Part shown: in pieces, positions 29,594 through 45,035 of the stretch
Layout: each line of letters begins with the position of its first letter
Numbering within the stretch: the stretch's first letter is position 1
Source of the DNA: a virus
Lineage: Duplodnaviria; Caudoviricetes
Virus record (IMG/VR): IMGVR_UViG_3300010052_000193
Location: 1 to 45,888 of that record
Direction: 5' to 3' (one strand)
DNA length: 45,888 nt
Translations under genes and position numbers: made by a program
Notes under the pieces: generated by a model
Told to the model about the DNA's origin: nothing
The model's database searches: none
What the model saw: the letters and a program-made list of their open reading frames with translations, nothing else

Positions 29594-31081
29594 ATGGCGA
29601 GTCTACGGAAGCGTGGGAAGGTCTGGTATTTCGCGTTCATCGACTCCGAAGGGCGTCGGGTCGAACGCAAGGGTTGTTCGGATCGGCAGGCCACCCGCGA
29701 GATGGCTCGCGAGGCCGAAGCCGAGGCCGCGAGGATCAAGGCAGGGCTGGTCGATCCCAAGGAATTGGCCAGGCGTGAGCACGCGGCCAAGCCGGTCTCC
29801 CATCACGTCGCGGCGTGGGGCGAGGCGTTGGCGGCGAGGGGCGGCACCGAACGGCACGTCTCCATGTCGGTCGGCCGGGTCCGTCGGCTGATCGCAGTCG
29901 CCCGGGGGGCCGAGCCCTCCGAGGCCGAGTATCCCCGCACAGCGAGCATGGCCGAGCGGGAAGAATACGAAAAACGATTGTCCGAATGGCTGAAGGCCGG
30001 GCGTCTCGGCGACCTGACGCCCGAGGCCGTCCAGCGGGCTTTGGGGGCGCTCCGAGCCCGGGGCATGTCCCTCCAGTCGCTCAACCACCATCGGGCGGCC
30101 GTACGGTCGTTCGCGATCTGGTGCCACGACACGAACCGGCTGAGGGAGAACACCCTTCGCGGCGTGAAGGGATTCAACGCCAAAGAGGATCGCCGGCACG
30201 ATCGACGAACGATCAGCCTGGAGGAGCTGAAGAGGATCGTGGAGGCCGCCGCCGCCGGCCCCGTCGTGCTCGGCATGACCGGCCCTTGCCGGGCGTTGTG
30301 CTACCGACTGGCCGTCGCGTCGGGGCTCCGGTTCTCGGAGCTGGCCAGCATCAAGCCCGGGTCGTTCGGCTGGGAAGACGAGCCGGCCACCGTGAGCGTC
30401 GAACCCTCCTACACGAAGAACGGCGAGCCTGCCGTCCAGCCGATCCCGCCCGACCTGGCCGTCGACCTGATGCGGTTCGTCGCGACGATCCCGCCGGACG
30501 AGCCCGTCTTCCCGCTCCCCCACGACCGGGGGGCCGAGATGCTACGGGCCGATCTGGCGGCGGCAGGCGTCCCCTACGCGGATGCATCCGGCCGGTTCTT
30601 CGACTTCCACAGCTTACGTTGCCAGACGGCAACCCTGCTCGACGCGGCCGGGGTGTCGCCTCGCGTGGCCCAGCGGATTATGAGGCACTCGACGCCCGGC
30701 CTGACCGACCGCTACACCAAGCCCCGGGCCGTCGACGTCGATCGCGCCGTCATGTCGATCCCGCCGCTGGCCCCGGCGAAAGCCCATCCATCCACCATGG
30801 CCGCGACCGGTACGGATGATCAACCCATAAACGATCCCTTTGCCGCACATTTGCCGCACGCGGGAGACGTTTCCGGTCGGTATTCGTCGCATGCTGACGT
30901 GACGACGAAGAAGGATGGCCATTCTTCGATGGAGCGTTTTCCCCGTAAAACAGGGGATATAAACGAAGGAAGCCGCCCGGAGGCGGCTTCCTTCGCGAGT
31001 GACCGGGCTGGGACTCGAACCCAGGACCAACGGATTAACATACCTCATCGGCTTTCACCGACAGGCCGGCACTTGACGTGA
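29594..31081 (+). CDS. int: Tyrosine integrase
   Basis: SGLRFSEL, TKNG, FHSLR, MRHS...T.RY catalytic motifs; AGGAGG RBS. Confidence 0.93.
   Translation: MASLRKRGKVWYFAFIDSEGRRVERKGCSDRQATREMAREAEAEAARIKAGLVDPKELARREHAAKPVSHHVAAWGEALAARGGTERHVSMSVGRVRRLIAVARGAEPSEAEYPRTASMAEREEYEKRLSEWLKAGRLGDLTPEAVQRALGALRARGMSLQSLNHHRAAVRSFAIWCHDTNRLRENTLRGVKGFNAKEDRRHDRRTISLEELKRIVEAAAAGPVVLGMTGPCRALCYRLAVASGLRFSELASIKPGSFGWEDEPATVSVEPSYTKNGEPAVQPIPPDLAVDLMRFVATIPPDEPVFPLPHDRGAEMLRADLAAAGVPYADASGRFFDFHSLRCQTATLLDAAGVSPRVAQRIMRHSTPGLTDRYTKPRAVDVDRAVMSIPPLAPAKAHPSTMAATGTDDQPINDPFAAHLPHAGDVSGRYSSHADVTTKKDGHSSMERFPRKTGDINEGSRPEAASFASDRAGTRTQDQRINIPHRLSPTGRHLT
30964..30995 (-). terminator. 14-bp perfect hairpin just downstream of the tRNA 3' end
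   Basis: CGAAGGAAGCCGCC-N4-GGCGGCTTCCTTCG, followed by TTTAT on the minus strand. Confidence 0.75.
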
Positions 31082-31371
31082 CGGCGTTGAAGGTCTGGAC
31101 TATCTCTTCGCCATCGCAGGCGCGCCGCGTCTAGTCTCTGAGGCCGGGGCCGATGATCCATCGGTCCCTTGCCTGCTGATTACCCAATCCCTCGACTTCT
31201 CGACCGTCACGATCGCCGTCGCCGGCCTCGTTGTGGTGCGAGGGCTCTCAGGGCGTCCCAGCATACTGCGGCGTCCACTCATCGCGGTTCGGCTTCTTCC
31301 CGCGCGAGGCTCCGAATGCAGTGGAATTCTGCTACTGAAGTCCGTTGCTCTACCGACTGAGCTACCCGGTC
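31000..31371 (-). tRNA. tRNA-Lys(UUU) split by a group I intron (exons 31371-31338 and 31038-31000; no encoded CCA)
   Basis: Joined exons give a 73-nt cloverleaf: GACCGGG/CCCGGTC acceptor stem, ACGGA-CTTTTAA-TCCGT anticodon arm, GGTTCGAGTCC T-arm. Confidence 0.93.
31039..31337 (-). ncRNA. Group I self-splicing intron, 299 nt, no ORF
   Basis: 5' exon ends in U and the intron ends in G; P AUGCUGGGA, Q AAUCAGCAGG, R UCAGAGACUA, S AAGAGAUAGUCC; P3, P4 and P7 pairings; GAAA-capped P9. Confidence 0.92.
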
Positions 31372-31625
31372 GCGAGTTGTCAAAGACACGATCAAGGTAC
31401 GCTTTTCAGCGACGAGAGTCCAGCCCCGATCAACTTCCCGGGGCGCGGCGGCGCGTTCCGAGCGTCTTTCTCGCCGACCCGGCTTCGCGTTTCGATCGGG
31501 CCACGGAGGAGTCCCGCAACTGGACCTGAACGCATAACTCCGGTATAGTCTCGACGGCGACGATTGTTTAGCAAGCCTTGAATATTTGCGGCGGCGGGTT
31601 CGTCTTGCGAAAGGGATCGACGGCG

Positions 31626-32574
31626 ATGGCAAGACGGTCGGGGGGGGATGGATGCGGCGATTTCCGTCGCAAGGGGGCCACGAGGCGCGAGGCGTTGCGA
31701 GCCGGGGCGCTGGCCCTGTCGGGGCTCGGGCTGCCGCAACTCTTCGCTAAGGCTCAGGCCGAGCGGTCGGGCGGGCCCGGGCGTGCATCCTCATCTTCCA
31801 GTGGGGAGGGCCCAGCCACCTGGACACCTGGGATCTCAAGCCCGACGCCCCGGCCGGCGTGCGGGGCGAGTTCTCGCCGATCGCCACGAGCACCCCGGGC
31901 CTGTTCATCAGCGAGCATTTCCCGATGCTCGCGGCGCGGACGCACCGGCTGGCGGTGATCCGGTCGATGACCCATGACGACCCGGCCCACCTCTCGACGG
32001 CCCATCGCGTGGTGACGGGGCACGTCGCGCCCCGGCCGAACTCCGACGGCGACGGCCCGTCGCCGAACGACTGGCCGCACCTGGGGGCGCTCGTCGCCAG
32101 GGTGCATCCGCGCGCCGGCGCGATTCCCGACTCGGTGATGATGCCCTGGTCGGTCGCCCACCCGGCCGCCCCGGGGGGCAGGGCCCCTGTGCAGCACGGG
32201 GGATGGCTGGGCAAGGCGTTCGACCCGTTCCGGGTCGAGGGGGATCCCAACGCGCCCGACTTCGTCGTCCCCGGGCTCGGACTCCCCGACGGCGTATCGA
32301 TCGAGCGTCTCAACGAGCGTCGTGCGATGCTCTCGACGGCAGGCGACGCGCTCGACGTCCCGTCCTGGGACGTCTTCCAGGCCAGGGCGCTCGACGCCCT
32401 CGGCTCGGCGGAGGCGCAGGGCGCCTTCCGCCTCGACGGTGAGCCCCACTCCATCCGCGACATGTACGGCCGGCACATCCATGGCCAGTGCCTCCTGATG
32501 GCTCGTCGCCTCGTCGAGGCCGGCGTCCGGCTCGTCACGGTCAACTGGCACGACGACGGTCGATCGTTCTGGGA
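31626..32574 (+). pseudogene. DUF1501 family gene, frameshifted near 31770 and truncated at FW-D(TH)
   Basis: TRREAL leader; CILIFQWGGPSHLDTWDLKP in another frame; GQCLLMARRLVEAGVRLVTV; family-like sequence stops after TTCTGGGA. Confidence 0.85.
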
Positions 32575-32687
32575 AGTTCAAGCGGCCCTTTTCGCAAGTC
32601 GTTCAGCCGCCTAGAATTCTGACTTAAGACCTATATCCCATAAGACGTTATGTGATCCCAGGCTGTCTCGTCTTGTTCCAGCCTTTC

Positions 32688-33075: not shown

Positions 33076-36000
33076 TTAGTCGCTCTTGCGGGTGATATTG
33101 GCGAACATCTTCGCGAGGGTCTCGGCCGTCATCTCTGGGACCTCGAAGTCATCGTCGTCATCGTCGTCCTCGAAGTCGGCGAAGAAGTCGCCCTCTTCAT
33201 CGTCCTCGTCGTCATCGGGGCCGTGGACGCAGGTCGGGAGTTCCGAGCACTCGTCCTCGCACAGCGAGTCGCTGCACTCGAAGGCAGGCTTGTCCGACTC
33301 CTTCTGCTTGACCAGGGCCTCGGCGGCATCGAGCCGGGCGGCATCGAGTTCGAGCCCATCCTTCATCGTCGGCTCGGGGTTCGCGTTGAACTCGTCGAGC
33401 TTCCGGCTGAAGGCTTCGGACTTGGCCAGGGCTTCCCCGACCAATTGAAGCTCCGTGGGCAGGCCGTCGAACAGGCTGGGCTCGGGATTGGCGGCCTTCG
33501 CCAGCTCATCCCCGGGCTTCCGCTTCTTGGGCCCGCTCTTGACCTTGCCCCACGACCGCTGCATGTCGGAGTCGTCGATCCGGTCGGCCAGGCTCTTGGC
33601 CAGGGCCATCTGGAGGTTGTTTTCCCCGGCCATCGCCGCCAGCCCGTCCTCCGAGAACTCGCCTTCGAGGGCCTGGGCCGCCGCCATCTTGCGGGACATC
33701 AGGCTCATCGCGTTGTGCTGCATCGTGTCCCGGTAGTACAGGTAGTAGACGCGGCAGTCGCGGGGTTGGCCGATGCGCCACGCCCGCCGGGCGGCCTGAC
33801 GCATCGTGAACAGGTTGTACCCCGTCTCGTAGAAGACCAGGGTCGAATAGTTGTGCCCGCCGGACGCCTTGCTGAACAGGTCCAGCCCGGTGCTGACGAG
33901 GCTCGGGTGGGAGATCATCACGTCGTAGTCCCGGCCGTTCTGGGCGATCCACGCCTCGCGGTCAATCGGGTTGACGTCCGTCGAGCGGAGCACGCCGACC
34001 TTCAGGCCCTCGGCCTCCAGCAGCTTCTTCAGCCGGGGCTGGATGTTCCGCTTGCCGGTCATCTGGACGTAGACCCAGGTCTGGCGGCCGTCCTTCTTCT
34101 GCATCTTGCAGATGTCGATGAGGGCCTGCTCCTTCGGGTAGGTCACGTCCTCGGGGAGATCCGCCGGGGTGACCACGCCGACCCAGTTGTCGATCTTCCG
34201 GTCGCCCGGGATCTTCCAGTAGCCGACCGTGTGAGGAAGGCCGGTCTGGGGCTGGATGACGCACTCGACGTCGCGGACGGTGAACTTGCCGACCGTCACC
34301 GAGGAGATTTTCGTCCCGCGTCCCCTGACGAGCGATCCATCGGCGATCTGGGACATGACGATCGTGTCGCCCTGCTTGGGCCTCAGCCCAATCTCGTTCG
34401 CCATCGCCTCGGGCAGCGAGATGCTCGCGGCCCCGGTGTCGTACGCCAGGGCCTTCGTGACGTTGCCGTTAAACGTGACGTCCAGCCAGAAGATCCCGCC
34501 CTTGCTCCTCAGCGGGATGCGATCCGTCTCGGTGACGCCGTCCACAGTCTTCGACAGGACAAGCTCGGTGGCCGCCGAGTCGAACTGGTAGTCGAAGTTC
34601 CCGAGAAATGCCTGCCCTAGCAGCCCCGGGGCCTGCCTCTCCTGGTCGGCCTCTCGCTCGTCGATCGCCTTCCGGACCTCCAGATCGTGACCCCAGCCGA
34701 ACGGCTTGTCCGGGTAGTCCATCGTGGTCCAGAGGTAGGCCCCGAGGAGCTTCATGCTCCCGGCCTGGAGGATATCCTTGTTCGCCTCCTCCAGCCTGGA
34801 CTTGATCCGGTTGTACTCGGCGGCCTGCTCGGGCGTCATCGGGACCGCCGTGTCGTACCAGCCGTCGATCGAGCGGTCGTGCCGGTCCAATTCGTCCTCG
34901 GTTGCCCCGGAGGGCTCGGCCGGCTCGGGCCCGCCGATGTACTCGAACAGATCCGGGAGTTCGTCCGCCAGTTCCTCCAGCGTGATGAACATGGATGACC
35001 CGATCATGTGCCTGCCGAACATCGTCGGCATGACCCCGGGCCGGACGACCTTCATGCACTTCTGGTCCCCGGTCTTGGCCCGCCGCATCGACTTCGCGTT
35101 GCCAGCCACCGATGTCGAGCCCCCCTCCTCGGAGGTCTTGACGATCCGGTCGATCCGGCCGTACTTCTCGCTGAACGCCAGGTCCTTGCCCCACTCGAAG
35201 CCCTCATCCCGAAGCGACCGGGGCGTGAGCCGCATCATGAGCGGGAACAGGTGGTGGGCGTACCCGCCTATGATCGTGCCGGTGAGAGCCAGCGTGTGCC
35301 GGGCCGAGGAGATCAGCTTGCCGCACGCCATGCTCTGGGCCGACTCGTCCGACTTCTGCTCGTGGACCTCATCGATGATCAGGTAGTCGAAGAACCGCCG
35401 CATCTTCTTCTGGATGATGCGGGCCGGCGACCACCGGACGGGCTTGGACACGTAGTTGTAGAGCGGCTCCCCGCACGACATCACGCGGTAGCGACGTCCC
35501 GCCTGGGAGAACGTGTCGGCTGGGCGGCCCGTGGCCCGGTCAGCCGGCTTCTTGTCGGCGAACCGGCTGGGCAGCGGGGAGATCCGGTCCAACCCCTCGT
35601 GCCGGGGCTTCTCGGCCTCCGGGATCTCGACGGCGTAAAGGCCCTGGCAGGTCTTCTGCGTCGCCCCCTTGGTCTTCGCGGAGAAGTCCTTCTCCGCCAT
35701 CGGGACGCCCTTCTTGTCGACGAGGCGGTTGCCGCACTTGGGGCAGGCGTAGACGGTGCCGTGGACGTTCTTCGACCCGGTCACCCGGCCGTAGTCGTCC
35801 TTCTCGAAGACCTTGTCGACCACGACGGACTTGGCCGACAGGCTCTTGGTCGAGGTCTTGCCGCCGAACCGCGTGCCCAGGTCGGCGATGCCCACCCAGT
35901 CGGACAGCCACTTCGCCTGGTTGCGTCCCAGGACGTACCACTCGGCCCCTTGCGGCTTGGACCATCGACCCCCCTGCCCTTTGCTGAGCAGGGAGACGAC

Positions 36001-36594
36001 GTCGCGGAGCGTCCGCCTGGTGCCGGACTCCGGCTTGGCCGCGCCTTTCTTTTTGGACGCCACGGCCTCTTCCTCGGCGGAGCCGAAGCGAGCGGCCTTG
36101 GCACCTGGGATGGTCTCCTCGATCTCGCGGCACCACTTGCCGATCAGGTGGTCCGGGCAGAGGATCAGGGCCCGGTAGTTCCCGCCCTTGCCGCCCTGCT
36201 TGCGGCTCTTGGAGGCGTGCTTATGGGCGCTGACCATTCCTAAAAGCGTTTTCCCGGTTCCCATTTCCCCGACGATGAAACCGGAGCCCACTCGGTCCAT
36301 CATCTTGCCGGCGGCGGCGATGACGTGCTTCTGGCAAGGGAACGGCTCCCGGAGCAGTTCGCCCATATCGGGGAGTTCGTCCTGCCCGGGGATGTGCAGC
36401 GGTGTCAGGGCGTGGATGGCCTTGTGGCCGAGGATCTTGCCATACGAGCCGAGGTATCCGTCCATCGAGTCGATCTCGGAGAGCGGTTTGACCCGGAACG
36501 GGATGGTCCCGACGGGGGCCTTGGTCTCCTTGGGCTCCTCGAACATGAGTTCCTCAAGGGTGCTGATTGTCTCGTCGAAAACATTGTGGTCCAT
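33076..36594 (-). CDS. SNF2-like SF2 helicase (ICE type) with Zn-ribbon insert, internal retropepsin-like domain and acidic tail
   Basis: GEMGTGKT, IIDEVH, ALTGT, LVSTGLDL, QAARRAWRIGQ; insert containing YDTGA. Confidence 0.9.
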   Translation of the reverse strand: MDHNVFDETISTLEELMFEEPKETKAPVGTIPFRVKPLSEIDSMDGYLGSYGKILGHKAIHALTPLHIPGQDELPDMGELLREPFPCQKHVIAAAGKMMDRVGSGFIVGEMGTGKTLLGMVSAHKHASKSRKQGGKGGNYRALILCPDHLIGKWCREIEETIPGAKAARFGSAEEEAVASKKKGAAKPESGTRRTLRDVVSLLSKGQGGRWSKPQGAEWYVLGRNQAKWLSDWVGIADLGTRFGGKTSTKSLSAKSVVVDKVFEKDDYGRVTGSKNVHGTVYACPKCGNRLVDKKGVPMAEKDFSAKTKGATQKTCQGLYAVEIPEAEKPRHEGLDRISPLPSRFADKKPADRATGRPADTFSQAGRRYRVMSCGEPLYNYVSKPVRWSPARIIQKKMRRFFDYLIIDEVHEQKSDESAQSMACGKLISSARHTLALTGTIIGGYAHHLFPLMMRLTPRSLRDEGFEWGKDLAFSEKYGRIDRIVKTSEEGGSTSVAGNAKSMRRAKTGDQKCMKVVRPGVMPTMFGRHMIGSSMFITLEELADELPDLFEYIGGPEPAEPSGATEDELDRHDRSIDGWYDTAVPMTPEQAAEYNRIKSRLEEANKDILQAGSMKLLGAYLWTTMDYPDKPFGWGHDLEVRKAIDEREADQERQAPGLLGQAFLGNFDYQFDSAATELVLSKTVDGVTETDRIPLRSKGGIFWLDVTFNGNVTKALAYDTGAASISLPEAMANEIGLRPKQGDTIVMSQIADGSLVRGRGTKISSVTVGKFTVRDVECVIQPQTGLPHTVGYWKIPGDRKIDNWVGVVTPADLPEDVTYPKEQALIDICKMQKKDGRQTWVYVQMTGKRNIQPRLKKLLEAEGLKVGVLRSTDVNPIDREAWIAQNGRDYDVMISHPSLVSTGLDLFSKASGGHNYSTLVFYETGYNLFTMRQAARRAWRIGQPRDCRVYYLYYRDTMQHNAMSLMSRKMAAAQALEGEFSEDGLAAMAGENNLQMALAKSLADRIDDSDMQRSWGKVKSGPKKRKPGDELAKAANPEPSLFDGLPTELQLVGEALAKSEAFSRKLDEFNANPEPTMKDGLELDAARLDAAEALVKQKESDKPAFECSDSLCEDECSELPTCVHGPDDDEDDEEGDFFADFEDDDDDDDFEVPEMTAETLAKMFANITRKSD

Positions 36595-36714
36595 AGATGC
36601 TAGTCCCCGGGGTAGTGGCCAGAAGTATGTCGTTGGTTCAGGGCGAGCGGAGCGGTCACTTCATGCGCGAGAGAAGGCCGGCGATAGCCAGTTGGTTCTT
36701 AAGATCAGCAATCT

Positions 36715-37392
36715 GGCCTTCCTTTAGTAATCGGACAAAAAACAACGCTAAGGCCGGTCTGCCCCGGAACTCGACGGCTGGGCTACGGCCTGGGACGTTG
36801 ATTCCGGGACGGATATCGAGACGGTTTTTGGCCCTCCCGCGGCCGGTCAAGCCGCTTCGGAAGGAAGTGCCGAAAAGGCGCTATTTCGGGATGTTCTGTC
36901 GGAAAGGCGACCTGGTAGATTCGGGCCCCTGCAATTAGCCTACCCAGGTCAACGGGCGGGCTAATTGCGGAAGGGGGCCATCGGCCATGAAGACCGCGAG
37001 GCGACGGATATCGGTTCGGGGTTTGCTGGTCGTCATCGCTCTCGTTGGCGTCACTCTCGCACTCATAAGACCCTTGCGGCCTATGAGCAGAGCGGCGGCG
37101 ATTCGGATTGCGAGGCAATACGCCTTGGAGGTTTACCCAGGCATCCACCTCGACGAATATGCGATTTCGGCTCCCACCCGCTCCGACTGGTTTGAAGAAT
37201 GGGCGGTCTACTTCCGCCACACATCGCAGAACGCAGGATTCCTCATCGATGTTGCAGGCGGCGACCTCTACAACGGCAACAAGGTGCGGGTGTTCGTGGA
37301 CAACGAGTGGGGCAACCGGCCCTGATACGCCCCGTCGAACGGACTGGCTATCGTCTTAGCGTTGTTTTTTGTCCGTTTACTACGGGAAGGCC
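36715..37392. mobile_element. Non-autonomous Tn3-family cassette (MIC/MITE-like), 678 bp
   Basis: 38-bp IRs (36715-36752, 37355-37392; 35/38 identical) ending ACGCTAAG; 5-bp TSD AATCT on both flanks. Confidence 0.9.
36987..37325 (+). CDS. Passenger membrane-anchored protein (112 aa)
   Basis: RRISVRGLLVVIALVGVTLA N-terminal anchor; sole convincing ORF in the cassette. Confidence 0.7.
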   Translation: MKTARRRISVRGLLVVIALVGVTLALIRPLRPMSRAAAIRIARQYALEVYPGIHLDEYAISAPTRSDWFEEWAVYFRHTSQNAGFLIDVAGGDLYNGNKVRVFVDNEWGNRP

Positions 37393-37690
37393 AATCTCGG
37401 CCTTCAGTCCAGGGATCCACTCCAGGAGCCGGCACGCCACGTCAATCCGATCGGGCATTCCGGCCGGCTTCCCTGGGAACTCGCCGATCTTCTCCAGGGA
37501 CTCGCTGATCTGGTTGTCGATAGCGTTGTTGAAATGGTCGATACTGTCCCATGACTTCTCGACCTCGGCATTCGCGGCTTTAAGCCGCTCGATCTCGGCG
37601 CGCAGTTCTTTCTTGCTGGGGCCGAAGAAGCCCCGTAGTCGGCGAAGCATCGGATTCTCCGTGCGGATATGTGGATGGGATGCCGGGAAT

Positions 37691-37715
37691 TGAAAAGCTC
37701 ATAATGAGCTTTTCA
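37691..37715. repeat. 25-bp palindrome TGAAAAGCTCAT-A-ATGAGCTTTTCA (copy 1)
   Basis: Perfect 12-bp arms; the 23-bp core recurs at 42248-42270. Confidence 0.85.
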
Positions 37716-38294
37716 GCGGGGGATGGAGAGGAGGTACTGCTGGAGCCCCTCGGTGATGACTTCGTCGAGGCTCTTGTCGGTGGCGGAGAGCACGCCGCAC
37801 TCGCAGTTGTAGCAGTCCGCGTCCTCCAGCCTCTCGTCGGCCCTCAGCCTCTCGGTGATGTACGGCACCCACTCGCGGATCAGCGGCGTGGTGAACTTCG
37901 TGCCCTTGAGCTTCTGCCAGAGCGACTCCTCGGTCACGATCGGCAGGAACCCGTCGTCCCTGGTCACAAACATGGCGTGGACCATGCCGTACCCGAGCTT
38001 GTGGGTGTAGGTGGCGTACCCCTCGTTGTCCGGGAACAGGCGGCCTGGCGAGTAGGTGTCCCAATATTGGGCTCCGGGCTTTCCGACCCTGATGCCGCCG
38101 GCCGTGATCGAGCACTTGACGCCGCTCCCCAGGATCGCCCGGATCTGCTTGATCCGCATTTGGTCGGCGATCACCGACAGCAGGAGCAGCTTGCCCTGAG
38201 CGGTGACCGCGATCCGATCGAAGTCGATGCTCGGCGTAAGGAAGTCCTTACCGCTGAATTCGATGTCGCCAAATCGTCTGTCGTAAATTGGCAT
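37713..38294 (-). CDS. Hypothetical protein of the MTase-helicase module (193 aa)
   Basis: AAGGA RBS; LLLSVI...LWQKL...TTPLIREW pattern; lies between MTase and helicase. Confidence 0.7.
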   Translation of the reverse strand: MPIYDRRFGDIEFSGKDFLTPSIDFDRIAVTAQGKLLLLSVIADQMRIKQIRAILGSGVKCSITAGGIRVGKPGAQYWDTYSPGRLFPDNEGYATYTHKLGYGMVHAMFVTRDDGFLPIVTEESLWQKLKGTKFTTPLIREWVPYITERLRADERLEDADCYNCECGVLSATDKSLDEVITEGLQQYLLSIPR

Positions 38295-38410
38295 GGCTTC
38301 ATCCTTTTGTGGATGGGCGGTGGTTTTGTTATATTAGTTTTGCCTGAGGTTGCTTGCCTGGTGGCGTGCGGATTGGAAGCTTGTCATTGCAAACTGCACT
38401 GGAGTTATAT

Positions 38411-38899
38411 ATGTATAATGTTTCCCTATCAGGTGTTTGGGACGGCGAATACTCCTACGAGATTTCTACCGAGGCCAGCCCTTACCCATCGCTCGTAGTA
38501 GGCTTCGTGTTCAGGGCGGAGGACGTTGAACGAGGGAAGTTCATCGGCTCGATACGAGATGATGATTCGAAGGGAGGAGTGCCGGTCGAAGCGAGCGTAG
38601 TCGGTCGATCGGAAGGAAATTCGATCAGCTTTCTCAAGCAGTACGACACATTCTACGTCATGTCCGAAGGACGCTCACGCTCGTTCAAGGAGGCTATAAG
38701 GCCCTTCGGGGGCCGAGCAATTGGACGAACCCCTAAATTAACCATAAGCTACGCTGGCGTTTACGATCCCAACCAACAATCAATGAGTGGCAGTTGGACG
38801 TTTGAGCAGACCATCATTCGGTTCTACTCACGGCTCCGAATATGGAAATTCTCTTGCCCGAAGACTAGCGGCAGATGGTGGGCTAGAAGGCGTCCATAA
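38411..38899 (+). CDS. Low-GC hypothetical cargo protein (162 aa)
   Basis: GGAG RBS; LSGVWDGEY...ISFLKQY...ISYAG...MSGSW...SGRW. Confidence 0.65.
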   Translation: MYNVSLSGVWDGEYSYEISTEASPYPSLVVGFVFRAEDVERGKFIGSIRDDDSKGGVPVEASVVGRSEGNSISFLKQYDTFYVMSEGRSRSFKEAIRPFGGRAIGRTPKLTISYAGVYDPNQQSMSGSWTFEQTIIRFYSRLRIWKFSCPKTSGRWWARRRP

Positions 38900-38974
38900 C
38901 GAATCGGCAATTCAATAGCGGATCTTGCCCCATGTCGGAGAGCAACCGACCTCGATCGAGGCGTGGCGTCTCAA

Positions 38975-39727
38975 TCAGCGGTTACCCCGCTGTTCACTCA
39001 GTTGCAGCTTCAGTTCCGCCTCGCAGGCCCGACGCACTCGATTCTGATCCCACTGTGATCCGTCCTTTGTTTTGAGCTTGAGGTTGTAGGTCAGGTGGTC
39101 GGAGATTTGCTTCCAGGACAGAGGGCAGTCCTGCATTCGCCAGGAGGCGATCGAACGCATGACGTTGCGTTCCTCGTCGTCCCGCTCGCGGATCTTCGTG
39201 GGCTTCCCGTTGAGCGTCGTCTTGCGCCACTTGTAGCCGTAGCCGGGGAACCGAGGGTTGGCGAAGCCCTTGGCCCGCTTCCCCGTCAGGCCGTCCTTCG
39301 TCCGCTCGCTGATGAAGGCCCGCTCAAGCTCGGCGAACGCGGCGAGGATGTGGATCATGAACCGGCCCATCGGCGAGGACAGGTCGATCGCCCCGCCGAG
39401 GATGTTGACGACGTGGAGCTTGATCTTCATCCTCTCGAACTTCTCCAGCACGACCACGCAGTCGGCCAGGCGGCGGAAGGCCCGGTCGAGCTTGGCGATG
39501 ACGATGTGGTCGCCCGGTCGGAGCTGGGTGAATAGCTCGCGGCCGGCGATCCGCTCCTCCCAGGTCTCCTTGCCGCTCGTGGCGGCGTCGGTGAAGTACG
39601 CCACGTCCCCGAGCCCGTGAAGCTCGGCGTACTTCCGGATGTTTTCCTTTTGAGTCTCTGGCGACTCCACCTGGCGCTTAGTGCTGGCCCTTGCGTATCC
39701 GAACACGCGGGGCGTTCTCTCACTCAT
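38975..39727 (-). CDS. Serine recombinase (resolvase domain plus C-terminal extension)
   Basis: GYARAST..Q, KLDRAFR, AFAELERAFISERT. Confidence 0.92.
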   Translation of the reverse strand: MSERTPRVFGYARASTKRQVESPETQKENIRKYAELHGLGDVAYFTDAATSGKETWEERIAGRELFTQLRPGDHIVIAKLDRAFRRLADCVVVLEKFERMKIKLHVVNILGGAIDLSSPMGRFMIHILAAFAELERAFISERTKDGLTGKRAKGFANPRFPGYGYKWRKTTLNGKPTKIRERDDEERNVMRSIASWRMQDCPLSWKQISDHLTYNLKLKTKDGSQWDQNRVRRACEAELKLQLSEQRGNR

Positions 39728-39968
39728 GCTTCTCTCTCCCCTTGCGGTCCCAGGTGACGTTCTCCGTGTCGATGAACCTCGTGATCCAGGGCCCGTCGTG
39801 CCACTTCCGCAGGGAGGCCAGGCAGACAGCCTCTCCGTCGACAGCCTCGGCGATCCCGGCCGCCGGGTCGTACTCCACCCTGATGCCGCCCTTGCGGAGC
39901 CCCTTCAGGAATCCCTGGAGGGTGGCGTTGGTGATCAGGGCGAACTTCTTCTTAGTCGAACCACTCAT
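39720..39968 (-). CDS. Hypothetical protein (82 aa)
   Basis: Overlaps neighbouring genes; GAGG RBS. Confidence 0.55.
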   Translation of the reverse strand: MSGSTKKKFALITNATLQGFLKGLRKGGIRVEYDPAAGIAEAVDGEAVCLASLRKWHDGPWITRFIDTENVTWDRKGREKHE

Positions 39969-40371
39969 CGAAGACCCCTACCTCTCTCCAGATGTGCCCG
40001 CACCGCTTCTGGACCTCGGCGGTGCGGAACTTGCCGCGATGCAGCCCGGCCGGAACATTCCGATAGCGACGCCACTGGCGGATCTCGTGGGCATCCCACC
40101 AGAGGTCACGCTGGTAGTTCGACTCCTGCTTCCGACAGGACACGTCGGGGATGCCGGCCTTGCGGTTGATCGCCACGTTGATCAAGTACTTCAGGCGATG
40201 CCTAGCCTGACCCTTGGTGATAGTCCCGTAGCCCCACTGGCCCTCGGGGTCGCGGGCCTCCTCCTTGTCGGACTCGACGAAGGCCCGGTAGTAGCGGAGG
40301 AGCTTGGTCGCACCCTTGATTTGGGCCGCCGAGAACGCCTTGCCGGCGAACATGATCATCTTCTCGCTCAC
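39952..40371 (-). CDS. Hypothetical protein (139 aa)
   Basis: Co-oriented ORF in the operon. Confidence 0.6.
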   Translation of the reverse strand: MSEKMIMFAGKAFSAAQIKGATKLLRYYRAFVESDKEEARDPEGQWGYGTITKGQARHRLKYLINVAINRKAGIPDVSCRKQESNYQRDLWWDAHEIRQWRRYRNVPAGLHRGKFRTAEVQKRCGHIWREVGVFDEWFD

Positions 40372-40417
40372 AGCTTCACCCTTCGGGTAAAGCCATCCCT
40401 GGCGATGTTTCCTGGGG

Positions 40418-41602
40418 TCAGACTGTGAGGCGCGACCGCTCGGACTGGGCCTCGGCGTCCTCTTCCTTCTCGGACACGTCGTTGGAGTAGGTGCGGATCA
40501 CGCCGTCCTGCTCGACGCAGCGGATCACGGTCGCCATCCTTTGGCTGAAGACGTCCTTGGTCGTCACGGCCCCGGTCTCGGGGTTCATCGTGGACTCGGA
40601 CGCCTCTTTATTGTGGTACTCGGCCTTGTGCGACGAGGCCCGGACGACGTGCGGGCCGAACGGCCCCTGGACCACGCCGTCCAGCATGCCGCTGGCGAGA
40701 ATGAGGCCCAGGTGCCCCTTATCGAGCGGCAATGGAGGCGACTCGGGCGGCGGGGCGACGACCTCAGTCAGCAGGCGGCCCAGCGGGCTCCTTTCGACCG
40801 CGTCCAGAAGCTCCTCGTCCGTGAACTTCGTCTTCTTCCAGTTGGTCGGCTTGACCGAGTGCGGGACCTCCCAGGAGCGGACCTCCTTCTCCCGCTCGTA
40901 GCCGCCCCGGCCGTCGCTCCAATAGCAAGGCTGGACCTCGCCGAGCGGCGGGAGATCCTGGATCTTGACGTAGCCCAAGTGCATGTTCATATGAAGGATT
41001 TTGCCTTCGGACAGCCGGTCTCCGGGGATGGCCGACGACCTCTTGCGGCCGAAGACCACGATCTCATTGAAGGGGCGATGGCCCTCGGGGAACTTGTAGA
41101 CGCAGACGTCCGAGTAGTGCGAGTCGAGGAACTGGACGAAGTTGCGGTTCCCGGACAGGGCTCGCATCGGGCACACGAGGGCCAGGATGCCGCCGCTGAC
41201 CAGTTGCCGCGTGGCCTGCTCGGCGAACGCCTGCTCCTCTCGCCGGCCGCCGCCCAACTCGTCGTCGAACGGCGGGTTGACGTACGCCAGGCCGAACGAG
41301 CACGCCGAGATGCTGGAGCCCATATAGGACGCGGGCCCGAGGTGCTGGTGCTCGGGCATGAGTTCCCTGGCCTCCGCCGACCGGCCGGCGTCAAGCTCGA
41401 CCGTGTGGACGTGCTTCTCGTCGACCTCCAGGGCACCGGCGATCTGCTTGATCGCGGCCCCTTTCCCGCAGCAGGGGTCGATGATGTTATAGGTCCGCTT
41501 CGACCCGTCGTTAGGCTTGAGCCGGAGATGCCGAGTCAGGTGCTCGATCGCCACCTCGTCGGCCGGGTAGAACCCTAGCTTGACCTGGGCAGCCAACCTC
41601 AT
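40418..41602 (-). CDS. DUF6094-type amino-DNA methyltransferase
   Basis: RLAAQVKLGFYP, DPCCGKG (motif I), VELD, YVNPPF (motif IV); C-terminal PPLPL..GHLGL.LASG.LDG. Confidence 0.88.
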   Translation of the reverse strand: MRLAAQVKLGFYPADEVAIEHLTRHLRLKPNDGSKRTYNIIDPCCGKGAAIKQIAGALEVDEKHVHTVELDAGRSAEARELMPEHQHLGPASYMGSSISACSFGLAYVNPPFDDELGGGRREEQAFAEQATRQLVSGGILALVCPMRALSGNRNFVQFLDSHYSDVCVYKFPEGHRPFNEIVVFGRKRSSAIPGDRLSEGKILHMNMHLGYVKIQDLPPLGEVQPCYWSDGRGGYEREKEVRSWEVPHSVKPTNWKKTKFTDEELLDAVERSPLGRLLTEVVAPPPESPPLPLDKGHLGLILASGMLDGVVQGPFGPHVVRASSHKAEYHNKEASESTMNPETGAVTTKDVFSQRMATVIRCVEQDGVIRTYSNDVSEKEEDAEAQSERSRLTV

Positions 41603-41699
41603 GGTGTTAGTCCTTTATGATGATGGGGTGTTTATAAGACGGAATTGAAGTCTACTCAAGCAGCGTGGATGCGCCGGCCCGCCGTCCGCTTGCGATTGC

Positions 41700-42131
41700 C
41701 CAGGACGACCCGTTTCTCGACGAATGAATGGACCTCGACACGACGACGTCGAGGATCTAGCCTCATCCCGAGACGTGCTTCGCCCCGATGCGGCGTGGGT
41801 CCGATCGTCGAGCATGACTACGCCGTCCAGATTGCTCCGCCGCCACTCGGCGTCATGCTTTACGCGCGGCTAGCTGCGACAGATGGATCTGGTGCCCGGT
41901 GATCTTCCGATACCAGGCCGCATTGGACGGCTCCAACCAGTTGCCCAACTGGACGGCGAGTACGTCGCCGAGATCGTCCGGCTCCCGGCGGCACGTCTTC
42001 TCCTCCCAGAGCTTGGCCGGACGCTCCGGATCGCTTCCCATGATGATCGTGGCGTCCGATCCCCTGAGGCCCTTCCTGCGGGCCGCACGGGCCTCCAGGC
42101 TCAAGCCGAGTGTGCTGAGGTCAGCTATCAT
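41700..42131 (-). pseudogene. YqaJ/lambda-exonuclease-like recombinase remnant (lower boundary approximate)
   Basis: RRKGL.GSDA..IMG...LWEEKT...AVQLG..LEP, then W.RSNLDG and AKHV in shifted frames with stops. Confidence 0.75.
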
Positions 42132-42194
42132 ATGCTCCCCTTTTCATTCTGGTGGAACCTGCTCCCAGAGGCTTAGATCAGGTTCTGGAAAATG

Positions 42195-42220
42195 AAAAGC
42201 CAACCCCGAAGGATTGGCTT
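42195..42220 (-). terminator. Intrinsic terminator
   Basis: AAGCCAA/TTGGCTT stem followed by a T-run on the minus strand. Confidence 0.65.
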
Positions 42221-42246
42221 GTTTGTGCTCCGTTGGCCTACCGAGT

Positions 42247-42271
42247 CGAAAAGCTCATAATGAGCTTTTCG
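42247..42271. repeat. 25-bp palindrome CGAAAAGCTCAT-A-ATGAGCTTTTCG (copy 2)
   Basis: Perfect arms; same core as 37692-37714. Confidence 0.85.
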
Positions 42272-42706
42272 CTAGAACCCCACCGCCTCGACGCCGCTGG
42301 AGGTCAGGCTCACGACGTCGTCCGGGCCCCAGGGCTCGTCCTCGTCCGCGAGATCATCCCAGGTCTGTAGAGCGGCCTCTGGGTCCTCGCCATCATCGTC
42401 GTCGCCTCCCTCGTCGTCCTCGCCGTCGTAGCAGGTGCAGTCGCAGACATGCTCCCCGCAGTCGTAGCAGACATCCTCTTCCTCATCCTCCTCGTCGTCC
42501 TCGAAACAGTCGGCCGAGTTGCCGAACAGGTCGTCGTAGGACAGGTCCTCGTCCGAGACCTCATAGTCGCCCTTGAAGACCTGCTCCCGGACGTCGTCGC
42601 CGAAAGTGAGGGTGCGTTCGACGGGCCCATCCTGAACGTGAACCTCGACCTCTCCGCCCGCCTCGATCTCGACCCCATTCACGATGACCTTGAGTACCCG
42701 TGCCAT
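42272..42706 (-). CDS. Highly acidic protein with a Cys cluster (144 aa, MARVLKV...)
   Basis: GGAGA RBS; D/E tracts around CYDCGEHVCDCTC. Confidence 0.7.
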   Translation of the reverse strand: MARVLKVIVNGVEIEAGGEVEVHVQDGPVERTLTFGDDVREQVFKGDYEVSDEDLSYDDLFGNSADCFEDDEEDEEEDVCYDCGEHVCDCTCYDGEDDEGGDDDDGEDPEAALQTWDDLADEDEPWGPDDVVSLTSSGVEAVGF

Positions 42707-42764
42707 AGTTGAATCTCCGTTGACCAAACGCCAGGATGGCTGCCCGTCCGATCGGGCCACGCAA

Positions 42765-43040
42765 TTAGTCTTTCAAAGAATGCAGGCGGATCATCTCGCT
42801 GAGCTTGTCCGTCATGTCCCGGAATGCTTCCCCTACTTCGTTGGCCGTCATATCGGGCCATATAGCCGATCGGACGATGTAGGTTTCCCCCGGCCGTCCG
42901 ATCTCGACGCACGCCATCATTCCGATGCCGTGCCGACGAATGCGACCGCACGAGACGGCCGTATTTCGCACGATGAAATCAAGCATCGGAAATGCGATCC
43001 TAGCTAAGCGAGTTTGCTCGTCCGTCAAAGCTTCAGGCAT
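42765..43040 (-). CDS. Hypothetical protein (91 aa)
   Basis: GGAG RBS; overlaps the upstream ORF. Confidence 0.55.
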   Translation of the reverse strand: MPEALTDEQTRLARIAFPMLDFIVRNTAVSCGRIRRHGIGMMACVEIGRPGETYIVRSAIWPDMTANEVGEAFRDMTDKLSEMIRLHSLKD

Positions 43041-43240
43041 GGCTTAGCTCCCATTGGAGTTATGTTGAATTCTTCGATGACTTGATCCGCTATCGCCGCC
43101 GCTAGTGCGGTATCCTCGGGAATACCCATGCGTTGAGCGATTTCGGCCAGCCTAGCCGAATTGCGGCGAGCTAGCGACATATGACCATGGGCGATTTGAA
43201 CTAGTCTCGTGAAAACCGTCTTCTGTGATTTCGTTAGCAT
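43025..43240 (-). CDS. Hypothetical protein (71 aa)
   Basis: AAAGGGGG RBS. Confidence 0.55.
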   Translation of the reverse strand: MLTKSQKTVFTRLVQIAHGHMSLARRNSARLAEIAQRMGIPEDTALAAAIADQVIEEFNITPMGAKPCLKL

Positions 43241-43334
43241 CGCTTCCCCCTTTCGATCCGCCGATTCCGACTAAGGACCGTCGCCACGTTCACACATATG
43301 CAGGCTAGACTAGATCAGGTTTCCGCAAGCCAAT

Positions 43335-43368
43335 AAAAAGCCCCTTAACCGTTTCAGGCAAGGGGCTT
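43335..43368 (-). terminator. Intrinsic terminator
   Basis: AAGCCCCTT/AAGGGGCTT stem followed by a T-run on the minus strand. Confidence 0.7.
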
Positions 43369-43829
43369 GCGTCGATTCGAGGCTTTGGGACGTCCGGCCG
43401 CCCGGGGCGGGATCACCCGCCTTCAATGCCGTTCGTCGTTTGCCTACCGCGTTTCTCATCTCGCCTTATCTCCCGGTTTCAGGTTTCGTCGTCGTCGGGT
43501 CGATTTTGAAGGCTCCTTCAAACCGGCCCTTACTGCGTACTCCGATCGGCCCGATTTTCAGTCGGCTTTGTCCGATCGGCTTGCGGCCCGAAACCCCTGG
43601 TATTGTCCGCCGGATCGATTGCGGTCCTTACGGGAAGGCCGGTCGATTGTCGGTCGGAAGCGATGCCAGGGAACGCGAACCGCTATAGAGAGTAGGCTAG
43701 GGCGTTCGGACCGCTCCGGCCGATTTGACTCCGACCGCCCGTACTCCGGGAGCCTAGATCACAAACCAAGGTAGCGAGTGAAACCCCTTGGAATCGCTCC
43801 CAAGGGGCGGGATCGTTGAGGGTCGGCGA

Positions 43830-45035
43830 TCAGGCCGACAGACGTTCGGCAGAGGGATCAACCTTGACCTCGTGCGTAGCACGTTCGGCGTCCAGCTTGA
43901 CGCGGGCCTTATCCATTTCGGCGATGTACCGGCCGAGTCGCTTGTACAGAGCGACCATTTCCGTATACCGGCCGAGAGCGTACATCGTACCGGCGAGCGT
44001 GCGGCATTCGTCGGCGGTCGCGGTCGCGGGATCGAATCCGACGCACGGCATATCGACGCCGCAAGCGTCAAAGACGGTCTCGACGATGGCCATGACGCCC
44101 GTCGCCGGGAGCACGTTGTTCGACAGAGCGTCGGTTAGCGACGTCGTGATAGCTTCGTTGGCTTCGTTGATACGCTTGGCGGCGGCACGGCCGGCGGCGG
44201 CGGCGGCGGATTTCTGGCGTTGTTCGTCCGTCTGCTTAGACTTCGCCAATTCGGCCAGCTTGTCCTTATGGGCTTGAACCATACCCTCAAACTTCGCTCC
44301 GACGGTTGCGGCGTGATTGGCCGAACGCTTCGCCTTGAGATCGGTGAAGAAATCAAGCCATTCCCTGGAAAGCGAGTTTTCGAGCGTATCCTTGTCGAAC
44401 CGCTGAGCCGACGGATGCAGGATGATCGCTTCCGAGATCGTGAGCGAATAGGCCAGCGTATCGCCGAACAACTCGCGGACGTTCTCCCGGACGCGATAGG
44501 CTTTCACCCAGTCGGAAACCTTGATGGATTCCGGCTTGATGGCGACGAACAACCGCACTTCGGTGCGGATTCGGAGCACCATCGATTCAAAGTCAATGTG
44601 GCTGTAGTTCGGAGCGACGTTCCGCCATCCGATCGCGAGTTCATACGCATCCTTGCCGATCGAGAACGACCGGGCGGATTCGCTCTGATGCATGGCCACG
44701 TACTGGCCGACGATACCCTTAATGGCTTCCCGTTCGGTCGGCAGAAATTCCTCGGGAGTCATCTTCGGGGCGGATTCGGCTGGGGCGTTGCCGCTGATGA
44801 TAATAGCGGCGGTTTCGCGTTCGGCTTGCAAGCCGAGTTCCGCATTCTCGGCCGGTCCGGGCTTGGCGGGATCGGGAGTCACGTACCCACCATCGATCGC
44901 CAGCTTGTGGATTGCGTCGGCGATTGGGGCGGCGGATTCGATGGCATCGGCACCGATGGCGGACGCCTGGGAATCGGCGGAAACGATCGGCTTGCGGTTG
45001 CGGCGAGCGACGGGGGAAAGGGTAGCGGTCGACAT
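43830..45035 (-). CDS. Hypothetical helical protein (401 aa)
   Basis: GGAG RBS; long ORF with protein-like composition; no family recognised. Confidence 0.75.
   Translation of the reverse strand: MSTATLSPVARRNRKPIVSADSQASAIGADAIESAAPIADAIHKLAIDGGYVTPDPAKPGPAENAELGLQAERETAAIIISGNAPAESAPKMTPEEFLPTEREAIKGIVGQYVAMHQSESARSFSIGKDAYELAIGWRNVAPNYSHIDFESMVLRIRTEVRLFVAIKPESIKVSDWVKAYRVRENVRELFGDTLAYSLTISEAIILHPSAQRFDKDTLENSLSREWLDFFTDLKAKRSANHAATVGAKFEGMVQAHKDKLAELAKSKQTDEQRQKSAAAAAGRAAAKRINEANEAITTSLTDALSNNVLPATGVMAIVETVFDACGVDMPCVGFDPATATADECRTLAGTMYALGRYTEMVALYKRLGRYIAEMDKARVKLDAERATHEVKVDPSAERLSA

Follow-up and report, generated by a model that had tools for sequence, protein, structure and literature searches.

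A group I intron at the anticodon site 34/35 of a tRNA-Lys(UUU) gene beside a prophage integrase

The split tRNA gene and its neighbours

The stretch of DNA analysed here (45,888 nucleotides, hereafter the window) makes up the whole of its virus record. At 31371-31000, on the minus strand, it carries a host tRNA-Lys(UUU) gene that is interrupted between anticodon positions 34 and 35 by a 299-nt group I intron (Table 1). To the left of the tRNA lie genes for a terminase, a portal protein, a capsid protein, a primase and a tyrosine integrase, the last of which terminates on the tRNA 3’ end; to its right are genes for a DUF1501 protein, a helicase-like protein, a resolvase and a methyltransferase. 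The DUF1501 gene (31648-32614) seems split over two frames, the second of which has a Pfam match starting at model position 36. The region 33076-45035, with the helicase-like protein and its aspartyl-protease domain, the resolvase and the DUF6094 methyltransferase, may represent another mobile element that lies upstream of the tRNA.

The insert begins directly after U34 and its last base is a G. When the exons are joined, ARAGORN recognizes a tRNA-Lys(ttt), a full cloverleaf with the loop CU-UUU-AA, and this sequence is identical at 73/73 positions to four of five natural intron-free alleles that we fetched, and at 69/73 to the fifth. Because these alleles, which come from related-family genomes and themselves read CU-UUU-AA, match the joined exons, they fix the intron boundary independently. 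The original prediction, which had read exons of 34 and 39 nt, a 73-nt tRNA-Lys(UUU) with this very loop, and a 299-nt insert at 34/35 with a U at the 5’ splice site and a terminal G, is thus borne out by the alleles. It had also expected standard tools to miss the gene, and indeed ARAGORN without the -i option calls no tRNA gene at the locus, and with -i miscalls it as Asn(gtt). A pattern that combines the S element with the 3’ exon matched the window once and none of 100 shuffles, so this match is not due to chance. Moreover, for a sequence model derived from 24 relatives outside the planctomycetes, the intron is the sole match in the window (91.3 bits, E 1.5e-27). The motif of the likely promoter recurs within 100 nt upstream of the tRNA in 20 of the 22 planctomycete loci, where shuffles would lead one to expect 0.075, and scores under the threshold of a generic scanner.

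Table 1. Features of the split tRNA gene and of the adjoining integrase gene, in window coordinates
Feature	Position	Strand	Remark
Likely promoter: TGGACT (31422-31417), 17 nt, TACCTT (31399-31394)	31394..31422	-	ends 22 nt before the tRNA
5’ exon of tRNA-Lys(UUU), positions 1-34, ending in CUU	31338..31371	-	34 nt
Group I intron, without ORF, terminal G at 31039	31039..31337	-	299 nt
Internal guide GGAG; P1 with C32, U33, U34 (U.G pair) and intron C+1	31310..31313	-	paired in 22/22 sequences of alignment A1
P2	31278..31308	-	two-sided change in 3/9 pairs
P3 (31273-31268 with 31128-31123), enclosing P4, P5, P6/P6a and R	31123..31273	-	
P4	31263-31258 with 31179-31174	-	
P5 and extension with GNRA hairpin	31254-31182	-	
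P6/P6a	31173-31142	-	
P7 (31138-31132 with 31102-31097), bulged A, guanosine-site G-C pair	31097..31138	-	
P8	31122-31109	-	
P9.0, around a variable hairpin and one capped by GAAA (31061-31048)	31042..31094	-	
3’ exon (positions 35-73) with discriminator A and no encoded CCA; likely prophage attachment core as well	31000..31038	-	39 nt
Tyrosine integrase of the adjacent prophage	29594..31081	+	PF00589, E 8.8e-10

Fold of the intron and its predicted removal

With the Rfam model RF00028, on which the original prediction had wanted to see a hit, the insert scores 21.7 bits (E 0.012) and does not reach the 50-bit cut-off, whereas 5 of 20 relatives do pass it. We therefore file the intron as group I on its structure, and not as an RF00028 match. 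P1 to P9 were placed by hand on the window sequence while the alignment was being consulted, and pairs were counted on 22 planctomycete sequences (alignment A1). The P, Q, R and S elements lie at 31256-64, 31172-81, 31132-41 and 31097-108, as predicted, as does the guide GAG, which is present in 78 of 79 distinct introns. Furthermore, the U before the 5’ splice site pairs with a guide G, the intron ends in G, P3 and P7 form a pseudoknot, and there is a P4-P5-P6 domain. P7 contains a bulged A and a G-C pair, as is established for the guanosine site of group I introns.

In A1, 97.1% of cells are paired, compared to 30-42% in slid controls. Two-sided changes occur in 18/74 pairs vs 8.7 +/- 1.7 in shuffles (0/500), a comparison in which kinship among the sequences can by itself produce an excess. 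Such changes are seen in P3, P7 and P8, with the terminal P7 pair being A-U in 14 and C-G in 8 of the 22 sequences; P4 never varies within A1. We place more weight on P3, because no search pattern imposed it: in the best of nine registers, it pairs 6/6 in 78 of the 79 distinct introns, which come from several phyla and have very different letters. By contrast, the search pattern and script in part dictated five P7 pairs (the first five), the terminal G and CUU, and the tallies of the latter two across loci, being required by both, are no evidence. The core covaries across relatives, in line with the predicted group I identity.

Taken together, a chromosomal tRNA-Lys(UUU) gene, likely of the Isosphaeraceae, is very probably split at 34/35 by an ORF-less group I intron, for which we predict self-removal through a two-step, guanosine-initiated reaction. 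After transcription from the upstream promoter, the guide GGAG would pair with the exon end CUU and, going by group I chemistry, a free G would cut after U34 at the U.G pair; the terminal G would then enter the P7 site, and joining of the exons would yield CU-UUU-AA, to which CCA would be added afterwards. As P1 counts only 4 bp, and P10 only 1 bp, the folded tRNA body likely helps to hold the splice sites.

Alternatively, the intron might need a host protein or chaperone for splicing in the cell, though we regard such a need as rather unlikely. In its favour are the short P1 and P10, an unconstrained fold in which the exon end is held in a longer, rival P1, and the 4-nt J3/4, a feature that marks protein-assisted intron classes. 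Conversely, a full P5 extension and a GNRA-capped P9 are kept, and the presence of the intron across many phyla and phages would favour independence from host factors.

Prophage, host and relatives of the split gene

On the opposite strand, the integrase frame reads through the 3’ exon and through the final 43 nt of the self-splicing candidate. As this frame passes at 31000-31081 through the likely attachment region and into the intron, its C-terminal tail would differ between the integrated and the excised state. Homologues that are 63-70% identical sit at the same place in genomes G089 and G091. Six fetched genomes have two copies of the 3’ exon, one within a whole gene and the other consisting of the 3’ exon with the last 3-28 intron bases, and in four of the five searched, an integrase homologue (51-70% identity) abuts one of them. 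From this arrangement, we infer that this integrase family would recombine near the end of the intron and leave the gene intact; likewise, the prophage in the window likely attaches at the 3’ end of a gene that is left whole. No second attachment copy was found within the window, nor were relatives of its integrase in the viral contigs searched.

The closest intron (L080) comes from an Isosphaeraceae bin, and because its exons are 100% and its intron 88% identical to those of the window, the host is likely a member of this family. The record being a virus record, and phages being known from our own searches to carry Lys introns, one may ask whether gene and intron belong to the phage instead. 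This is very improbable, as the flank upstream of the gene agrees with chromosomal loci, the intron falls among the chromosomal copies of Isosphaeraceae in a core tree (bootstrap 100), and what integration duplicates in relatives is limited to the 3’ exon plus 3-28 nt of intron.

The pattern of S element and Lys 3’ exon yielded 5 viral and at least 80 genome loci. Among the matches listed, plus the window (86 in total), 82 have a full cloverleaf Lys(ttt), one is a false match, and three lie at contig or locus ends; L014 and G214 were discarded as false pattern matches. The 82 listed loci comprise 40 actinobacterial, 22 planctomycete, 7 Patescibacteria-type, 5 viral, 3 proteobacterial and 3 Chloroflexota loci, one from Salinibacter and one labelled Woesearchaeota. 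An intron at Lys 34/35 is therefore present in some Microbacterium and Agromyces, some Patescibacteria, Chloroflexota and Proteobacteria, and some phages; further phage and plasmid records gave only partial core matches. G040 (locus L035), an unpublished actinobacterial genome, enters the counts of loci, structures, core types and intron-free copies, and no conclusion rests on it alone.

The original prediction had proposed a survey of planctomycetes; in the Isosphaeraceae (the family of Tautonia), BLAST matched the intron in 66 of 74 genomes. Five others have an intron-free allele and no intron, and three show neither. Among 131 sampled Microbacteriaceae, 101 match the 3’ exon and only two carry the intron, one of them being the centre of the sample. 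The intron is patchy in the Microbacteriaceae, and nearly fixed in the Isosphaeraceae, where it would have entered before or early in the spread of the family, followed by mostly vertical descent with few losses. Among 251 genomes, 5 matches fell in the class but outside this family, and the four inspected proved to be Leu or CAU tRNA introns. Confinement to the Isosphaeraceae within the class was nevertheless rejected as a conclusion, since the same pattern missed about half of the known family carriers.

Five Lys introns are 628-656 nt long. All three of those tested (L004, L053, L079) hold an ORF for a PD-(D/E)XK endonuclease (PF11645, E 1e-17 to 1e-20) between Q and R; the other two look broken. 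These relatives, with an endonuclease gene in P6, suggest that the intron may have spread between phyla by homing. One of them, L079:457-1112, lies on a 1252-base contig of a Woesearchaeota-labelled bin that is likely mis-binned, as the contig is short and its core groups with Chloroflexota copies. In L032, the P6 region looks like the remnant of an endonuclease gene, and L046 has a duplicated stretch in P8.

Is this tRNA gene the only one to read AAA in its genome? We took 50 intron-bearing genomes from 77, three of which also lack a match for the Lys(CUU) control, and confirmed an intron-free Lys(UUU) in nine of them, namely 8 of 21 planctomycetes and one alphaproteobacterium. None was found in the other 41, many of which are incomplete bins; these include 12/12 actinobacteria, eight Patescibacteria-type genomes and a complete chromosome. 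Since 41 of 50 carriers show no intron-free copy, splicing is likely essential where such a copy is absent, and reading of AAA would there depend on the ribozyme. This is not general, because a further Lys(UUU) gene, free of the intron, exists in 8 of the 21 planctomycete carriers. In L086-L090 and L092, this second copy is divergent and part of conserved Isosphaeraceae arrays of 8-12 tRNA genes.

These second copies, six of the eight lying in such arrays, could also mean that the split gene is a dead remnant while another copy reads AAA. We find this hard to believe, given that 13 of the 21 have no intron-free Lys(UUU) by pattern, and that the cloverleaf, the promoter motif and a core with compensatory changes are all conserved.

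RNA was compared for 8 of 22 listed runs, all as contigs. A joint that skips exactly 299 nt occurs in X4 (one contig, with another acceptor stem) and X6 (two contigs). Because these contigs run on into foreign sequence, and intron-free alleles exist, the joints lend no support to splicing. Intron pieces are present in the RNA libraries, without a ranking by depth, and no circle joint was listed among the contigs of the eight runs.

That the gene is a tRNA-Asn(GUU) with an intron after U33, which is what ARAGORN -i reports for the window and many relatives, can practically be dismissed: the intron would end in U rather than G, the intron-free alleles have CU-UUU-AA, the discriminator is A in 77 of the 82 listed loci where tRNA-Asn needs a G, and separate Asn-type loops exist in the same genomes. 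The tRNA-Lys(UUU) with an intron after U34 explains the hidden or Asn-miscalled tRNA in most genomes of a family common in soil and peat, and in some cultured Microbacterium and Agromyces strains too.

Core lineages and comparison with known tRNA introns

Subgroup IC3 is marked by a 3-nt J3/4 and a compact P5, and subgroup IA by an extra helix between P7 and P3. The window intron has a 4-nt J3/4, as do 72/72 introns of its type, together with a 78-nt P5 insert and a P4 of UGCUGG/UCAGCA, and J7/3 is 3 nt in 79/79 introns. By these features, the Lys 34/35 intron is neither IC3 nor IA, in agreement with the original prediction, which had seen a long P5 extension and nothing obviously of IC3 type. 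Its P, Q, R and S elements may resemble the classic consensus, and the original prediction had suggested a likeness to IB-type rRNA introns.

In the core tree, 22 Lys introns of the window kind are set apart, with bootstrap 100, from Leu-type cores and from five phage and proteobacterial Lys introns that lie scattered among Leu(UAA), CAU and Arg introns. That the Lys site was invaded twice, independently, was considered and not retained: although the tree splits the two core types, a single Lys clade was not rejected in an AU test on 32 rows and 92 columns (p = 0.069). Leu(UAA), Lys(UUU) and Arg(UCU) all present CUU before the site, and this shared CUU would let one guide serve all three tRNAs. 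Two core types at one site, together with Leu and Arg introns that follow the same CUU, offer a natural test of intron movement between tRNAs.

Several related introns were encountered along the way. The 484-kb phage LR756508.1, a record without annotation, has a Lys(UUU) and an Arg(UCU) gene side by side, both interrupted after U34, by introns that are related to each other (L158:523-1173). In Microcoleus phage OR578706.1 (L157:1-696), a free-standing PD-(D/E)XK gene immediately precedes a split tRNA-Arg. In other Planctomycetia (L126, L128, L129, L130), Leu(UAA) is interrupted at 34/35 and a CAU tRNA at 33/34, by introns with a compact core and a P9 layout as in the Lys introns. Two Isosphaeraceae genomes have a second tRNA group I intron, at 36/37 of a CAU tRNA (L124:1456-1788 in G051; L125:1479-1831 in G003), which has an insert between P7 and P3 and is IA-like by the features above; the RF00028 genome search reported this intron, and not the Lys intron.

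A broader proposal, which we consider less likely than not, is that of an undescribed, non-IC3 and non-IA lineage at Lys 34/35, which would be near-fixed in the Isosphaeraceae, move between phyla with a P6-encoded PD-(D/E)XK endonuclease, share its site with a second, Leu-like lineage, and be targeted by an integrase family whose attachment core starts inside the intron end. If true, decoding of AAA by a housekeeping tRNA would be gated by an intron in this family.

The original prediction implied novelty, listing Leu, fMet/Ile, Arg and Asn/Asp as the known sites; this overlooks Williams 2020 (bioRxiv 10.1101/2020.01.27.920355), which raised the four classical bacterial tRNA-intron classes, all IC3, to 21, thus adding 17. 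That survey, of genomes of January 2017, used a cut-off of 18-20 bits with RF00028 and an ARAGORN split call, which both the window (21.7 bits) and the Microbacterium copies (54-55 bits) pass. Its classes share with the window intron an anticodon-loop site, a U at -1 and a terminal G, and its naming rule would make ours ‘Lys.3Ug’ (Lys, loop position 3, U-1, terminal G). The main text of Williams 2020 names neither a Lys class nor planctomycetes, and assigns neither structures nor subgroups to the 17 added classes; still, Lys 34/35 is quite probably among those catalogued. Our literature search, which covered few subscription papers, found no text naming a bacterial Lys 34/35 group I intron. 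Fixation throughout the family, the existence of two core types and an attachment core that starts inside the intron may be unreported. Hausner 2014, in whose text ‘Lys’ does not occur, places phage introns exclusively in protein genes, a statement contradicted by the phage tRNA-Lys intron loci found here.

Among the closest known systems is the tRNA-Leu(UAA) 34/35 intron (Leu.3Ug, assigned to IC3 by Williams 2020), with the same position, CUU exon end and GAG guide, and a similar P9 region. Leu copies L126, L128, L129 and L156 score 61-75 bits on the Lys model. The Leu copies examined differ, however, in having a 3-nt J3/4, a UUCGG/CCGAG-type P4 and a P5 insert of 20-25 nt; they lie in another tRNA, and their core identity to the window is about 50%. 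The tRNA-fMet intron has a PD-(D/E)XK endonuclease, presumably I-Ssp6803I, and PF11645 is likewise found in relatives L004, L053 and L079, but that intron occupies another tRNA and another site, and the window intron is without an ORF. In Patescibacteria, Nakagawa et al. reportedly described in 2025 tRNA-Asn/Asp introns at 35/36, of subgroup IA, that standard tRNA finders miss; the broader survey in that study may include Lys. These introns, too, are hidden from tRNA finders and are not IC3, as is the case for the window intron, but they occupy another site in other tRNAs, and the window intron is without their insert between P7 and P3.
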